Of a DNA stretch of 4,101 bases, positions 68 through 3,627 are shown one piece after another. The notes beneath the pieces are model-generated. The model worked only from the letters and a program-made list of their open reading frames with translations. It was not told the origin of the DNA and ran no database searches. Numbering within the stretch: position 1 is the first letter of the stretch; the number at the start of each line of letters is the position of its first letter. This DNA comes from a virus (Duplodnaviria > Heunggongvirae > Uroviricota > Caudoviricetes), in the IMG/VR virus record IMGVR_UViG_2740892439_000015; one strand, written 5' to 3'. A program made the translations under genes and the position numbers.

Positions 68-143
68 TGGTGGCCCCTACCGGATTTGAACCGGTGACCG
101 TGCGATTATGAGTCGCCTGCTCTAACCACTGAGCTAAAGGGCC
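68..143 (-). tRNA. tRNA with CAU anticodon; tRNA-Ile2 (lysidine) type more likely than elongator Met
   Basis: Reverse complement of 68-143 folds as a 76-nt cloverleaf: acceptor GGCCCTT/AGGGGCC (one G.U), D-arm GCTC-AGTGGTTA-GAGC, anticodon arm GGCGA-CTCATAA-TCGCA, T-arm ACCGG-TTCAAAT-CCGGT, discriminator A, encoded CCA (plus-strand TGG at 68-70). The anticodon stem-loop GGCGACTCATAATCGC matches what I recall for enterobacterial tRNA-Ile2 (ileX/ileY class). G1-C72 pairing argues against initiator tRNA. Confidence 0.85.
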
Positions 144-297: not shown

Positions 298-1125
298 TTA
301 TTTCACCGGAACAAACGGAACAGCTGTATTACTGGTCATATACTGCGGTAGCGTTCCGTTCCATTTGTTGATCGCTTCCAACTCCATAACGCCGGGGTTC
401 TGGCGCAGAGCCTCACCGCGTAAACGAATGGCATCAGCTTCAGCCTGGGCTTTTGTGCGAATGGCATCGGCCTGCCCGGCAGCTTCTGCGCGCAGCATGT
501 TGGCTTCTGCTTCGCGTTGCTTGACTTCCTGCTCGCGTTGCAGAGTTTTCTGGTTCGCCGTGACTTTGGCATTAATGCTGTCGATAACGGTTGGCGGGTA
601 CTCCGGCTTGCCCACATATGAGAGGCTCATTACCTGAATACCGATGGGCGTCATTTCTTCCTGGATGTCTTTAAGAGCTGCATCCAGTAGTTCAGACTTG
701 CCACCGTCGATAAATTTGTCGGTGGTCATTTTGCTGGCCAGTCGGTTAAGTGCGTCGGCAATCTTCTGGCGCAGGTCGGTGTCGGTAATGTCATCCACGC
801 CTTTGCGGTAGGTCTGAAATACAGTTGTGACTTTTGCCGGATCAACCTTGTAAGCTACACCAATGTGGTAACCAATTGTTGTCCCGTCGCTCATTTGGAA
901 GCTGAACGGATCATCATAGGTCTTCATTTGCTTAAAGGTAGGGAAGATATAAACTTCTGTGTTCCAGCCTGTCCAGTAGCGACCAACGCCAACTACTTCG
1001 CCGACACCTTTATCATCCCCCAGCTTATTTACTTTGATCCCTACATTGCCTGGTTCTACCCGGTCGCATCCGGTCAGACATAAAGAACCCAAAATAATCG
1101 CTGCACTAATCAACGTTTTTTTCAT
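298..1125 (-). CDS. SPFH/band-7 (prohibitin/stomatin/HflK-C superfamily) lipoprotein, 275 aa
   Basis: Complete ORF in the supplied track. N-terminus MKKTLISAAIILGSLCLTGC is a typical lipoprotein signal peptide with an L-T-G-C lipobox. The central region resembles an SPFH domain, and the C-terminus is Ala/Glu/Gln/Arg-rich and looks coiled-coil (EQEVKQREAEANMLRAEAAGQADAIRTKAQAEADAIRLRGEAL), as in band-7 proteins. Family call is from sequence character and memory, not a search. Confidence 0.85.
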   Translation of the reverse strand: MKKTLISAAIILGSLCLTGCDRVEPGNVGIKVNKLGDDKGVGEVVGVGRYWTGWNTEVYIFPTFKQMKTYDDPFSFQMSDGTTIGYHIGVAYKVDPAKVTTVFQTYRKGVDDITDTDLRQKIADALNRLASKMTTDKFIDGGKSELLDAALKDIQEEMTPIGIQVMSLSYVGKPEYPPTVIDSINAKVTANQKTLQREQEVKQREAEANMLRAEAAGQADAIRTKAQAEADAIRLRGEALRQNPGVMELEAINKWNGTLPQYMTSNTAVPFVPVK

Positions 1126-1342
1126 TAATCAATTTCCTGGTTTTTTCACGAAAAAAGACTACTGCAAAAGCCGGGTAAATGAGCGCGAGAAGGACTCCCA
1201 ACAATACAAGTATTGTGCTGTCAGATGAGATCATATTTGGCAAAAGCCAAACATACAGAACCAGTGACACAATCAAACAGAGGACGACATAAATATATAA
1301 TCGCACCCATAGCGTTCGACATTTGTTCGGATTGTTCTGCAT
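1106..1342 (-). CDS. small membrane protein (78 aa, two predicted transmembrane helices), co-operonic with the SPFH lipoprotein
   Basis: ORF with ATG at 1342-1340 preceded on the minus strand by GGAGTGAGAGG (Shine-Dalgarno-like). Two hydrophobic segments (LWVRLYIYVVLCLIVSLVLYVWLL and ILVLLGVLLALIYPAFAVVFF). Its 3' end overlaps the SPFH start by 20 nt (1106-1125), suggesting translational coupling. Confidence 0.7.
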   Translation of the reverse strand: MQNNPNKCRTLWVRLYIYVVLCLIVSLVLYVWLLPNMISSDSTILVLLGVLLALIYPAFAVVFFREKTRKLINEKNVD

Positions 1343-1400
1343 CCTCTCACTCCATTATTTAACGAATAAAAAAGCTGCGGTGCCTGGTGCCTCCAGGTGA

Positions 1401-1423
1401 CGTTAACCAGTTAACAATTAACG
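1401..1423. promoter_or_regulatory. candidate operator: three TTAAC repeats (cgTTAACcagTTAACaaTTAACg) with flanking CGTTAA/TTAACG inverted symmetry, about 60-80 nt upstream of the operon start
   Basis: Seen directly in sequence. Position is in the presumed promoter region of the small-membrane-protein/SPFH operon. No sigma-70 -35/-10 pair could be assigned confidently. Confidence 0.25.
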
Positions 1424-1492
1424 CCGGGATGTTTGACTTAACCACTAAGGAGGATTGTTTTAACTGTTCCGCGTGCGCTTAGCCGCATTCAC

Positions 1493-1604
1493 CGCAATGG
1501 TAAGAGCACTTGGCTGGCTGGGCGGCGATGACGCCTGTACGCATTTGGTGATCCGGTTCTGCTTCCGGCATTCGCTTAATTAGCCAAATACTCTTAACGT
1601 TGCG
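1493..1604. repeat. tRNA-3'-end-associated long-stem inverted-repeat element, copy E1 (degenerate)
   Basis: Arms 1493-1513 (CGCAATGGTAAGAGCACTTGG) and 1584-1604 (CCAAATACTCTTAACGTTGCG): 17 Watson-Crick pairs, 1 T.G and 3 mismatches over 21 positions, enclosing 70 nt. The 3' arm ends 1 nt from the CCA end of the Ser-like tRNA (1606). Plus-strand flank GCATTCAC and arm core GGTAAGAGCA are shared with E2/E3. Confidence 0.6.
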
Positions 1605-1605
1605 C

Positions 1606-1692
1606 TGGCGGAGAGTAATGGAATCGAACCATCATCGCTTGCGCAATGGGACGGTTTTCAAGACCGCTTGAGCACCATGCTCCCTACTCTCC
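1606..1692 (-). tRNA. type II (long variable arm) tRNA, anticodon UGA; tRNA-Ser(UGA)-like, atypical D-region
   Basis: Reverse complement is 87 nt: acceptor GGAGAGT/ACTCTCC (7 perfect pairs), anticodon arm GCGGT-CTTGAAA-ACCGT (U33, anticodon TGA, A37), 17-nt variable region containing a 5-bp stem with GCAA tetraloop (ATTGC-GCAA-GCGAT), T-arm GATGG-TTCGATT-CCATT, discriminator G, encoded CCA. The D-region (AGG GAGC-ATGGT-GCTC AA) has 3 nt before the D-stem and a short loop, so function is uncertain. Confidence 0.6.
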
Positions 1693-1982: not shown

Positions 1983-2058
1983 TTATTGGTCGTTCCTGCG
2001 GTTTATGTTGTGAAGCCAGATGCTTATCTTCTGGTTGCTTCTAGGAGCTGCACTTCAT

Positions 2059-2145
2059 CACAACGGTAAGAGCATTTATGGCTCGCATCGCGGGAAAAAG
2101 CCCACGGTAGAGAGTCGAACTCTACAAATGCTCTTACCTGTTGTG
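2059..2145. repeat. tRNA-3'-end-associated long-stem inverted-repeat element, copy E3
   Basis: Arms 2059-2077 (CACAACGGTAAGAGCATTT) and 2126-2145 (AAATGCTCTTACCTGTTGTG) form 19 bp with one bulged T, enclosing 48 nt. The interior has two hairpins on the minus strand: GTAGAG-TTCGACT-CTCTAC (T-arm-like loop) and CGUGGG-CUUUUU-CCCGCG (needs a G.U, so pairs only as minus-strand RNA). The 3' arm ends 1 nt from the tRNA-Thr CCA end (2147). Confidence 0.65.
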
Positions 2146-2146
2146 T

Positions 2147-2222
2147 TGGTGCCGGTTAACGGGATCGAACCGCTGACCATTCGCTTACAAAGCGACTGCT
2201 CTACCAACTGAGCTAAACCGGC
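2147..2222 (-). tRNA. tRNA-Thr (anticodon UGU)
   Basis: Reverse complement is a 76-nt cloverleaf: acceptor GCCGGTT/AACCGGC, D-arm GCTC-AGTTGGTA-GAGC, anticodon arm GTCGC-TTTGTAA-GCGAA (anticodon TGT), variable TGGTC, T-arm AGCGG-TTCGATC-CCGTT, discriminator A, encoded CCA. It differs from the housekeeping E. coli thrU sequence as I recall it. Confidence 0.85.
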
Positions 2223-2226
2223 AATT

Positions 2227-2313
2227 TGGTGGGGAGTGATGGAGTCGAACCACCCGAGTCGCAATGACAGTAGATTTACAGTCTACCCCGCTCCCCCTAC
2301 GGACTAACTCCCC
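2227..2313 (-). tRNA. tRNA-Tyr (anticodon GUA), type II with long variable arm
   Basis: Reverse complement is 87 nt: acceptor GGGGAGT/ACTCCCC, anticodon arm GTAGA-CTGTAAA-TCTAC (anticodon GTA), variable arm TGTCATTGCGACTCG, T-arm GGTGG-TTCGACT-CCATC, discriminator A, encoded CCA. The ACTGTAAATCT and GTCAT segments parallel E. coli tyrT as recalled. Only 4 nt separate it from tRNA-Thr. Confidence 0.8.
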
Positions 2314-2318
2314 TAAAT

Positions 2319-2395
2319 TGGCGATGGTGGGTGGATTCGAACCGCCGACCGACAGCTTAGAAGGCTGCTGCTCTATCCTACTGAGCTACACCATC
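2319..2395 (-). tRNA. tRNA-Arg (anticodon UCU, reads rare AGA codons)
   Basis: Reverse complement is 77 nt: acceptor GATGGTG/CACCATC, D-arm GCTC-AGTAGGATA-GAGC, anticodon arm GCAGC-CTTCTAA-GCTGT (anticodon TCT), variable CGGTC, T-arm GGCGG-TTCGAAT-CCACC (one C/A mismatch), discriminator G, encoded CCA. Same architecture as E. coli argU but divergent sequence. 5-nt spacer to tRNA-Tyr. Confidence 0.8.
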
Positions 2396-2855
2396 ACTTG
2401 CCGGGTACGTCTCCGGCGAGGGCTTCCACCTCCGTATGCTTTTCGGCGCACCGCGCCCTAGCTGCAATTCGGTAACAGGGGATGCACAACCCTGGCTTCC
2501 AGCGTGATTAGCGCCTTCAGCATGACGGGATATACCCGTTACAATAAATTCCCCCAGGATGCCATTAAGCAATGGCTGTTACGCGGGAGGGACGTAACAG
2601 GTAAGGGCGCTGACCAGAAAGACCTGACCCTTCTCATTCATCTGGTTAATCACACCAGCGCCCTTGCCTGTTATGCCTCCCCGTTCCCTAATACACAGAC
2701 GGGGACACTCTGCGGTCGATTTTTTGACGGGGGACGACTCATACCCCGTGGCGTCTGGCTTCTTAGGCCGCTACCATCATCAGATCATCGTTTGCATTTA
2801 CTTTAATGGTCGGTTTCTAAACCGCCGCAAAGTCGCTAACCATGACGAAAACCCT

Positions 2856-2879
2856 AAAAAAGCCCACCCGAAGATGGGC
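2856..2879 (-). terminator. rho-independent terminator (minus strand) with UUCG tetraloop
   Basis: Minus-strand RNA reads GCCCAUC-UUCG-GGUGGGC (7-bp stem, one G.U; stem 2862-2879) followed by UUUUUUAGGGUUUU. Coordinates cover the stem plus the first U-run (2856-2861); the U-rich tract continues to about 2848. On the plus strand the stem is preceded, not followed, by the A/T run, so it is unidirectional. Confidence 0.6.
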
Positions 2880-2898
2880 AAATACGCTACATCTCACA

Positions 2899-2977
2899 CA
2901 AGAAAGAAGCCGACTGCCTGAGCTGGATTCACTTTCAAATGCCCGCTGAAAGGGATCACAAGTCGGCTTCTTTCTTG
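2899..2977. repeat. perfect 17-bp inverted repeat (CAAGAAAGAAGCCGACT / AGTCGGCTTCTTTCTTG) with 45-nt spacer
   Basis: Arms 2899-2915 and 2961-2977 are exact reverse complements. It lies about 20 nt upstream (minus-strand sense) of the terminator at 2856-2879. No credible ORF overlaps it. Confidence 0.6.
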
Positions 2978-3182
2978 ATGCGGCACTCTCTCCGCCCGTC
3001 ACCGCTCTTTCTCGGTTGTCGCGTTTGCCACGCCAGCCATAACGAGGTTTAAAGTCTTTTCACGTTCCCATCACTCGACTGCCGTCTGTGGCTGTTCGTT
3101 GCAGCGGGGGTGCCACCCCCTGGGGATATCCCGGCCTTACCCCATTCTTTCAAGACACAATGCAAGGCCACATCCGCATAGG

Positions 3183-3270
3183 TGCATTACCGCAACATTA
3201 AGGAGACTCAGGCAAAAGGTAACCGCCACAAAAATCCCTATGCCTCCTTAATGTTGAAGATGTGCATTGA
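3183..3270. repeat. perfect 13-bp inverted repeat (CAACATTAAGGAG / CTCCTTAATGTTG, 38-nt spacer) bracketed by direct repeats GTGCATT
   Basis: Arms 3193-3205 and 3244-3256 are exact reverse complements. GTGCATTAC at 3182-3190 and GTGCATTGA at 3262-3270 flank them as direct repeats. Confidence 0.5.
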
Positions 3271-3627
3271 TGATTAGATGCAGCATGTACCGTTACTCTC
3301 TGCCGGACCATCATCAATGAACACCTTAAAAAGACCTTCCGTGGCTCAACATGTATTGTCGTTTACTCCGCAAAGTGCTCTCTCTGAAACCACTTTCCGC
3401 ACTAAACCTGTTGAACTTTGGTCTGCTCGGTGCCAAAGCGTGCTCTTGGTTTACTATACTTTTCTAACACTTTAATTTGTTAATTGCCGGTGGGTAAACA
3501 ATAACCAATAAGTGACTATCAAGCCCAGCAAGCGAAACGTGGGTACCGCCCACCAGCAAGGAAAATTCTATGTTAAGTCATCTTCACAATCAATACATTC
3601 GAATTGTGATTTTAGATTTCTAACACA

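Follow-up and report, generated by a model that had tools for sequence, protein, structure and literature searches.

SPFH proteins constitute a universal class of membrane-organizing cages, the clients of which are mostly unknown. Within this class, HflK/HflC faces the periplasm and cages FtsH. The tciABC locus of the P1-like phage-plasmids, in turn, is one of eight highly variable regions of these elements and is absent from nearly half of them (PMC9603915). Here, we analyze a stretch of 4,101 nucleotides from a caudoviricete virus record of IMG/VR (IMGVR_UViG_2740892439_000015; the whole stretch is hereinafter the window), which codes for an SPFH/Band-7 lipoprotein of 275 residues and, immediately upstream of it, for a predicted two-helix membrane protein of 78 residues (hereinafter the partner). 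We find that these two genes are a real phage cassette and that their pairing goes far beyond chance.

An SPFH lipoprotein and its two-helix partner

The 275-residue protein matches the Pfam Band_7 profile (PF01145) with 107.9 bits against a gathering cut-off of 23.6 (E = 7.8e-31; profile positions 2–176 of 176), which places it in the SPFH superfamily, and it falls into PHROG 200 ('lipoprotein') with an E-value of 1.1e-114. In total, 721 homologs were found. The mature form of 256 residues has a mass of about 28 kDa and an isoelectric point of 5.4. In the AlphaFold2 (AF2) monomer model (pLDDT 74.6, pTM 0.53), a β-rich SPFH domain is followed by a single long helix and a short, poorly defined C-terminus with pLDDT below 55; the α/β SPFH fold and the long coiled-coil helix are thus both present in the predicted structure. 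Foldseek searches of the PDB with this model recovered full-length matches to erlin1/2, HflK/C, prohibitin, stomatin, flotillin and QmcA-YbbJ, with E-values from 1e-12 to 1e-7. At the sequence level HflC and HflK are the only named subfamilies that match, the HflK alignment covering residues 114–240, and the scores against the corresponding NCBIfam equivalog models are 25.4 bits (cut-off 134.4) for HflC and 23.5 bits (cut-off 159.4) for HflK. Outside the SPFH domain, the most conserved motif in an alignment of 10 phage lineages is a C-terminal LEAINKWNGxLP, in which W255, G257 and P260 are invariant; it is a candidate cap or oligomerization element, located where the cage subunits would close the dome. 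The 'serine protease' label of older records is rejected, Band_7 being the sole Pfam match with no accompanying protease domain; a weak PHROG 'protease' match (8e-4) falls on the coiled-coil helix, and we take the label to be a legacy transfer, which the present analysis corrects.

The N-terminus offers a predicted mode of membrane attachment in the form of a signal peptide and the lipobox L17-T18-G19-C20, followed by D21-R22. This arrangement is conserved: among the 120 closest homologs, at least 106 combine a lipobox with C-D-R (rarely C-D-N), 100 of them by the strict pattern and 6 more among 12 listed exceptions, and 5 of the remaining listed exceptions lack the cysteine or are truncated. 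In Enterobacterales, an aspartate at position +2 after the lipidated cysteine is an inner-membrane retention signal (the Lol-avoidance rule). Hence, the conserved Asp at +2 suggests that the mature SPFH protein sits on the periplasmic leaflet of the inner membrane.

The partner belongs to PHROG 1130 ('membrane protein'; E = 2.4e-15). It has hydrophobic helices at residues 15–34 and 44–64, a basic N-terminal tail (+3), an acidic loop of nine residues and a C-terminal tail with five Lys/Arg residues, and the helix positions and charges together predict an N-in/C-in topology. Its periplasmic loop can be described as P35-x-M-I-S39 ... G49, with P35, S39 and G49 invariant in the family alignment. 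All 145 homologs of the partner are unnamed and lack a Pfam family. NfeD (PF01957) gave no match at E-values up to 1 in the partner and six of its homologs, and no other Pfam family exceeded its threshold in these sequences. Despite a visual likeness to TciB of P1 (DUF3927), namely two transmembrane segments, an 'SD' loop and a proline in the second segment, that identity is rejected with an hhalign probability of 0.1%. Though conserved, the partner gene is left unannotated by PGAP in the plasmid of E. coli JS316 (locus L094, 6828–7309) and is likewise missing from the annotation of the Stx2a phage LC567840 (locus L007, 2816–3004), suggesting a systematic under-annotation of this mini-protein.

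In the window, the 3′ end of the partner gene overlaps the start of the SPFH gene by 20 nt, an arrangement that constitutes translational coupling; a GGAG/GAGAGG Shine-Dalgarno-like sequence precedes the partner ATG, and a similar AGGAA lies 8 nt before the SPFH ATG. On other backbones the two genes share 4-nt overlaps of the ATGA type. The partner is directly upstream in 78 of 80 close IMG/VR loci (SPFH identity 93–100%), which are distributed over three unrelated backbones, and one of the two partner-less loci has merely 210 nt of upstream sequence. Four divergent partner homologs, found at seven places, each directly precede a Band_7 gene coding for 275–286 residues. The same partner-then-SPFH order of PHROG 1130 and PHROG 200 genes recurs in the phages P88, Erwinia S6, SSU5 and Alcaligenes QDWS595, with the partner directly upstream; in the Stx2a phage the partner is an unannotated open reading frame (ORF) of 62 residues overlapping the SPFH start by 4 nt, and in KE22 a single ORF of 54 residues is placed between the two. 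Across a dereplicated set of diverse viral loci, 31 of 46 SPFH genes are preceded by a small membrane ORF whose end falls between −100 and +50 nt relative to the gene start. For the controls, which were the remaining ORFs with a minimum length of 150 residues in the same loci, the count is 11 of 126 (Fisher p = 5e-14). Within the subset that has a lipobox the fraction is 18/23.

The two halves of the cassette have diverged unequally. Across the three backbones the mature SPFH protein is 92–94% identical and is under strong purifying selection, while the partner retains only 32–46% identity, and the megablast homology to the P2-like and lambdoid copies ends at about position 1071, inside the lipobox codons. 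The partner and the signal peptide thus make up a separately diverging module. We also observed a second, unrelated family of two-helix ORFs of 62–65 residues, with the signature MKHF(I/L)LL...YF.W.Y..., directly upstream of more distant SPFH genes that are likewise of the lipoprotein type (lipobox L[TSA]AC[ST]Q). Thus, the combination of a mini-membrane protein with an SPFH lipoprotein has come about with more than one family of partners.

These results bear out what the original prediction, made by a model from the letters alone, had said of the two proteins. Both ORFs exist with the proposed boundaries, the shared strand and the 20-nt overlap; Band_7, PHROG 200 and Foldseek concur in keeping the 275-residue protein within the SPFH superfamily; the expected lipid anchor in place of a helical one agrees with the LTGC lipobox and the C-D-R conserved in the closest homologs; and the partner, described as a two-helix mini-protein, is indeed not of the NfeD type.

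Distribution, the variable slot and a proposed lytic-cycle role

A tblastn search of the GenBank phages identified the SPFH protein in 792 of 50,697 records (~1.6%). The temperate carriers include P1-like elements, the P2-like phage P88, Stx2a lambdoid phages and the phage-plasmid SSU5; the virulent ones span Kayvirus, Seunavirus, N4-like Schitoviridae, phiCbK-like, crAss-like and Lak phages; and haloarchaeal viruses are also represented. In E. coli, 514 of 5426 complete genomes (9.5%) carry the gene, at 393 chromosomal and 201 plasmid places. The homologs are therefore accessory phage and prophage genes rather than core genes, in line with the accessory position that had been claimed for the pair.

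The window itself is, on the strength of its nucleotide matches, part of a D6/P1-like phage-plasmid. Among the GenBank phages, its best whole-window megablast match is Escherichia phage D6, which aligns over 67% of the window at 95.7% identity, and the left 2.9 kb additionally align to the P1-like vB_EcoM-Ro157c2YLVW (hereinafter Ro157c2YLVW), RCS47, P7 and P1. The nearest complete record, a D6-like plasmid of 91 kb from E. coli JS316, is 99.4% identical over positions 298–1342, and the window copy is 97–99% identical to the copies of P1-like elements. P1 carries tciA-tciB-tciC between its Thr/Asn tRNA genes and trnI, with upl and plp annotated there on the opposite strand; D6 has tciA-tciB in the corresponding place, and Ro157c2YLVW has a membrane-protein/lipoprotein pair, as in the window. 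According to DNA alignments with D6, P1 and Ro157c2YLVW, the exchanged segment runs from about 290 to about 1376. Judged by these alignments, the cassette takes up the variable region of tciABC, flanked by tRNA-Ser and by the P1 trnI (Ile2-like) gene, and it furnishes one example of what takes the place of tciABC in P1-like phage-plasmids.

The original prediction had set the pair between a tRNA array and a tRNA-Ile2-like gene, and these flanks are as described, the latter, with its CAT anticodon, being P1 trnI. It had also proposed a survey of neighborhoods for consistent linkage to tRNA arrays, prophages or defense genes; the linkage to phages and prophages emerged from ours, and that to tRNA arrays did not extend past the P1/D6 backbone. 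By backbone, the 80 close loci divide into 30 P1-like, 31 P2-like and 19 lambdoid ones, and tRNA genes lie within 4 kb at 30/30 P1-like loci and at 0/50 P2-like or lambdoid loci. A linkage of the cassette to tRNA arrays is accordingly rejected: since the P2-like and lambdoid cassettes lack tRNAs, these neighbors belong to the P1/D6 backbone and not to the cassette.

The neighborhoods on the other backbones are those of early or DNA-metabolism genes. In the P2-like P88, cox and the replication endonuclease gene flank the pair, which is part of the early operon and shows 4-nt overlaps, and in P2-like phages the start of the pair overlaps the stop of the preceding gene. In lambdoid prophages it is lodged between a cI-like repressor gene and xis/int, again with overlapping codons, and in SSU5, S6, KE22 and QDWS595 it is found among recombination and nucleotide-metabolism genes. 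We infer that the pair is transcribed with the early lytic genes and not from a lysogen promoter of its own. That P2-like and lambdoid phages embed the pair in early operons under repressor control, and that virulent phages carry it as well, points to a lytic-cycle function rather than prophage cargo.

Taking these observations together, the reading we lean toward, if only somewhat, is that of an early lytic-cycle membrane function, in which the SPFH protein would form a periplasm-facing cage at the inner membrane along with its two-helix partner. The signal peptide would be cleaved and Cys20 lipidated, with the Asp at +2 holding the protein on the periplasmic leaflet. Modeled on the solved SPFH proteins HflK/C, prohibitin, erlin and QmcA, the protein might then oligomerize via the 65-residue helix and the C-terminal KWNGxLP into a dome or cage over a membrane patch. 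The partner would provide the membrane-spanning element that cellular SPFH proteins take from their own N-terminal helix or from NfeD, and the only residues conserved in it would sit in the short periplasmic loop beside the lipid anchor, contacting the anchor region. The pair may thereby act in lytic growth as a host-takeover function at the inner membrane.

As for the target, the broad distribution and the strong purifying selection argue for a universal host component rather than a phage-specific receptor. By analogy with HflK/C, we tentatively suggest, as a possibility well short of even, that the cage corrals or modulates some machine of the host inner membrane, the foremost candidate being quality-control proteolysis by FtsH. 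FtsH is preferred because the protein is predicted to share the membrane orientation of HflK/C and has HflK and HflC as its nearest sequence relatives, and also because there is a phage precedent: lambda encodes the FtsH inhibitor CIII in the early-left operon, where the lambdoid copies are also found. A more general role in keeping the membrane of the infected cell intact is possible. A rather speculative extension is that the SPFH protein and its partner represent a phage-specific 'split' periplasmic cage, made early by virulent and temperate phages, which captures a universal host inner-membrane machine; its target could be FtsH together with its HflK/C cage, or else the patch of membrane at which DNA enters. 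If true, this would be a general and so far unrecognized host-takeover or broad exclusion mechanism, operating from enterobacterial to staphylococcal phages.

Several points weigh against an early inner-membrane function of this kind. The AF2 model is a monomer of moderate confidence, the proposed oligomer and partner contact lying beyond it. Orthology to HflK/C is rejected, the equivalog scores being far under the cut-offs, and a link to FtsH is known for HflK/C with no direct one for the window protein. Retention in the inner membrane may suffer from the arginine at +3, position +2 is occupied by S, G, E or Y in members from other hosts, and an HflK/C-like protein of a Pasteurella multocida prophage has been reported in outer-membrane vesicles. 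In 15 of the 46 diverse viral SPFH genes there is no detectable small membrane ORF upstream. With respect to timing in the D6-like backbone, the cassette is preceded by an intrinsic terminator (2879–2862), and a promoter search turned up no consensus match in the window between the two. Finally, full-text literature searches returned no functional study of phage SPFH lipoproteins; the genome papers found repeatedly mention an SPFH/HflC-like gene and only speculate on lysogeny.

Of the competing explanations, the main rival is superinfection exclusion or envelope shielding, in which a periplasmic SPFH lattice with the partner would alter the inner membrane and so prevent a second phage from injecting its DNA, lysis from without or the entry of colicins, much like T4 Imm and Sp, which are expressed early, or like the exclusion lipoproteins Llp, Cor and Ltp. 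We regard it as doubtful, if deserving of serious attention. A predicted extracytoplasmic, lipid-anchored protein encoded in early operons would suit such a role, and the early-left region of lambdoid phages often carries exclusion genes. Moreover, the cassette is allelic with the TerB-like tciABC, annotated by homology as colicin/tellurite resistance or phage inhibition, and the SPFH gene of a Vi01-like phage adjoins an annotated superinfection-exclusion gene. However, the exclusion proteins known so far show poor conservation and are specific to a phage or receptor, whereas the SPFH protein is 92–94% identical across P1-, P2- and lambda-like phages and recognizable from Staphylococcus to Caulobacter phages with unrelated entry routes; no exclusion phenotype has been reported for it, and it matches no PADLOC model. 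The same database bears on a prophage-expressed anti-phage defense or abortive-infection module that would protect the lysogen: PADLOC-DB v2 gave no match at E-values up to 0.01 for any of the four window proteins, neither member of the pair included, and a known anti-phage defense system is accordingly rejected. The variable accessory slot, the accessory distribution in E. coli and a Tad2 family gene just downstream in the closest relative would be compatible with such a module, but the embedding in lytic early operons with no intergenic regulatory space of its own and the frequency in strictly virulent phages make it quite improbable.

A control of lysis timing, with the cage corralling a holin, antiholin or spanin or preserving the proton-motive force until programmed lysis, finds its precedent in the fact that SPFH cages enclose membrane proteins, and in the Kayvirus Team1 the pair is directly downstream of endolysin (CHAP/amidase) genes and upstream of a transglycosylase gene. 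We nevertheless deem it unlikely, as early or DNA-metabolism regions, and not the immediate vicinity of the lysis genes, harbor the pair in genomes of the P1-like, P2-like, lambdoid, SSU5, N4-like and Seunavirus types. The least probable explanation, to which we give very little credence, is a lysogenic-conversion surface factor, namely an outer-membrane or vesicle lipoprotein acting on an animal host as a Toll-like receptor (TLR) 2 agonist or virulence factor. It derives from the above-mentioned P. multocida protein, PM0222, which is reported to activate TLR1/2 and to contribute to virulence; yet PM0222 is a putative relative of the window protein at best, the conserved Asp at +2 predicts retention in the inner membrane, and the family abounds in virulent phages of environmental hosts. 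The lytic-cycle cage at the inner membrane hence remains our preferred reading, and the obligate mini-partner, the inner-membrane retention signal and the early lytic operons make the pair a concrete and cheap experimental model.

Flanking genes, tRNAs and structured RNAs

All features of the window are on the minus strand (Table 1). In the order of transcription, the 3′ part of a pmgS-like gene is followed by about 1.2 kb free of ORFs, the tRNA-Arg(TCT), Tyr and Thr genes, a spacer and tRNA-Ser(TGA), after which come the 78-residue ORF, the 275-residue ORF, an ORF of 43 residues and the CAT-anticodon tRNA. A truncation of pmgS is rejected, as its reading frame stays open up to the window edge, indicating that the gene runs past the end of the window.

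Table 1. Coordinates of the features discussed (window positions unless another locus is named)
Feature	Position	Strand	Basis or remark
CAT-anticodon tRNA, P1 trnI	68..143	-	tRNA-Ile2 in P1, tRNA-Ile by PGAP; downstream slot border
TciC-like single-helix ORF, 43 residues	153..284	-	between SPFH gene and trnI; DNA alignment with D6 and P1
SPFH/Band-7 lipoprotein gene, 275 residues	298..1125	-	ORF, Pfam Band_7, PHROG 200
C-terminal motif L-E-A-I-N-K-W-N-G-x-L-P, residues 249-260	346..381	-	alignment of 10 phage lineages
Single 65-residue helix, residues 178-242	400..594	-	AF2; counterpart of the SPFH-cage coiled-coil wall (CC1)
SPFH (Band_7) domain, residues 22-208	502..1062	-	Pfam envelope; AF2 β-rich N-terminal part plus helices
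Signal peptide and lipobox (predicted), residues 1-20	1066..1125	-	motif LTGC then Asp21; Cys20 codon 1066-1068
Partner/SPFH gene overlap, 20 nt	1106..1125	-	partner stop region over SPFH start
Partner gene, 78 residues, predicted two-transmembrane inner-membrane hairpin	1106..1342	-	ORF, PHROG 1130
Conserved structured leader	1376..1496	-	homology with D6/P1 resumes at about 1376, the upstream cassette border
Hairpin repeats, three paralogous copies, about 100-120 nt	1484-1606, 1817-1921, 2050-2147	-	fold z-scores -2.0, -6.2, -5.9
tRNA-Ser(TGA)	1606..1692	-	backbone array
tRNA-Thr	2147..2222	-	backbone array
tRNA-Tyr	2227..2313	-	backbone array
tRNA-Arg(TCT)	2319..2395	-	backbone array
Strong intrinsic terminator	2879-2862	-	in ORF-free 2400-3600
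Very stable long hairpins	3254-3330, 3193-3256, 2899-2977 (17 bp, perfect), 2586-2682	-	z-scores -4.5 to -5.8
Sigma-70-like promoter	3593-3565	-	in ORF-free 2400-3600
pmgS-like gene, 3′ part	3628 to window edge	-	frame open to end
P1 hairpin-repeat copies (locus L002)	4980-5069, 5241-5345, 5474-5571		beneath opposite-strand upl, plp
Second partner family (IMG/VR loci)	L170, L173, L174, L178, L183, L189, L193, L203		

The 43-residue ORF, passed over in the original prediction, is a homolog of P1 TciC, its N-terminus reading FWTFADKNP as against FWDFADKHP in P1; it has a weak match to PHROG 23152 and is called hypothetical by PGAP in the JS316 plasmid. It is kept in D6-like elements despite the replacement of tciA/tciB and is deleted in Ro157c2YLVW. 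This ORF is a backbone remnant of the tciABC module and is outside the cassette. Beyond the left edge of the window, the gene after trnI in the JS316 plasmid (L094 4742–5317; D6 orf6) is annotated as a member of the Thoeris anti-defense Tad2 family, so that this neighborhood collects host-interaction genes.

Among the tRNA genes, tRNA-Ser(TGA) has tRNA-Sec as its top Rfam model, with 44.6 bits below the gathering cut-off of 47, and was not called by tRNAscan-SE in the D6 record; it may be an atypical long-arm tRNA. The tRNA complement varies among P1/D6-like elements (window 2147–2395; loci L013–L043), with either Asn or Arg(TCT) coming first and Tyr and Ser being variable, which suggests a cassette-like turnover of these genes.

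The structured leader that marks the upstream border of the cassette has its counterpart in P1 and D6 upstream of tciA. It shows a sub-threshold likeness to the STnc100/PasD-like model of Rfam (39.4 bits against a gathering cut-off of 47, E = 2.6e-7, model positions 31–147 of 206), STnc100 being a prophage-encoded small RNA family that is reported to be related to PasD. More generally, the ORF-free spacers of the window are rich in long conserved hairpins. Two of the three paralogous hairpin repeats begin at the 3′ end of a tRNA (Ser and Thr), and all three keep a 19-bp stem in which five pairs are changed on both sides. With a covariance model, almost all of the P1/D6-like loci searched proved to contain three to four copies of the repeat, and the P2-like, lambdoid and SSU5 loci contained none. 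In P1 the copies are located beneath upl and plp ('putative lipoprotein'), and hence these two annotated genes may be spurious. Candidate roles for the repeat are an RNase processing site, a small RNA and a site for the recombination of tRNA cassettes. The 1.2 kb between pmgS and the tRNA array (2400–3600) is a candidate for a long structured non-coding RNA or several small RNAs. The homology to P1 stops at 2882, within its annotated 'dicF-like region', and the Rfam DicF model has no match in the window at E-values up to 1.

Comparison with known systems

HflK/HflC-FtsH of E. coli (PDB 7vhp, 7wi3, 9cz2) resembles the window protein in having an SPFH domain, a long wall helix, a short C-terminal cap region and, as predicted for the latter, a large domain that projects from the inner membrane into the periplasm. 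Among the named families and solved structures, HflK and HflC are also the best matches at the sequence level, and they have a known phage link through the stability of lambda CII. They differ in being anchored by an N-terminal transmembrane helix and in forming a K/C heterodimer encoded by a gene pair, neither of which is found in the window, where a lipobox, one SPFH gene and a mini-partner with two transmembrane segments take their place.

The SPFH-NfeD operons (QmcA-YbbJ, PDB 8z5g; YqiK-YqiJ; PH1511-PH1510; FloT-YuaF) share with the window a small membrane-protein gene that is upstream, co-directional and overlapping, and the SPFH subunit of QmcA-YbbJ has the same fold (Foldseek rank 36). 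They differ in the nature of the partner, as that of the window has neither an NfeD/OB nor a protease domain and consists merely of two helices with a nine-residue loop. Further, the SPFH domain of QmcA faces the cytoplasm, unlike the window protein with its predicted periplasmic orientation. The SPFH domains of prohibitin and erlin face the non-cytoplasmic side, and these proteins are associated with membrane proteolysis or endoplasmic-reticulum-associated degradation. They (PDB 8rrh, 9o9z, 9vvg) are the top full-length structural matches, but are eukaryotic, helix-anchored and only 14–18% identical in sequence.

In P1, the slot that extends from the conserved leader to trnI is filled by the tciA-tciB-tciC module, which likewise encodes small membrane proteins. 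This module differs in that TciA is TerB-like and cytoplasmic and that the partner of the window is unrelated to TciB; TciA and TciB are absent from the window, in which the TciC-like ORF alone remains.

The families themselves are already known: RefSeq labels them 'membrane protein', 'lipoprotein' or 'SPFH domain-containing protein', PHROG groups them, and the window is a further copy. What is not stated in the literature searched is the obligate pairing with a two-helix protein other than NfeD, the conserved inner-membrane sorting signal and the allelism with tciABC. The nearest counterparts are the PHROG 200/1130 pairs gp11/gp12 of P88, gp044/gp045 of Erwinia S6, SSU5_061/062, gp85/gp84 of Ro157c2YLVW and that of RCS47, which are of the same family and share both the architecture and the gene order of the window cassette.

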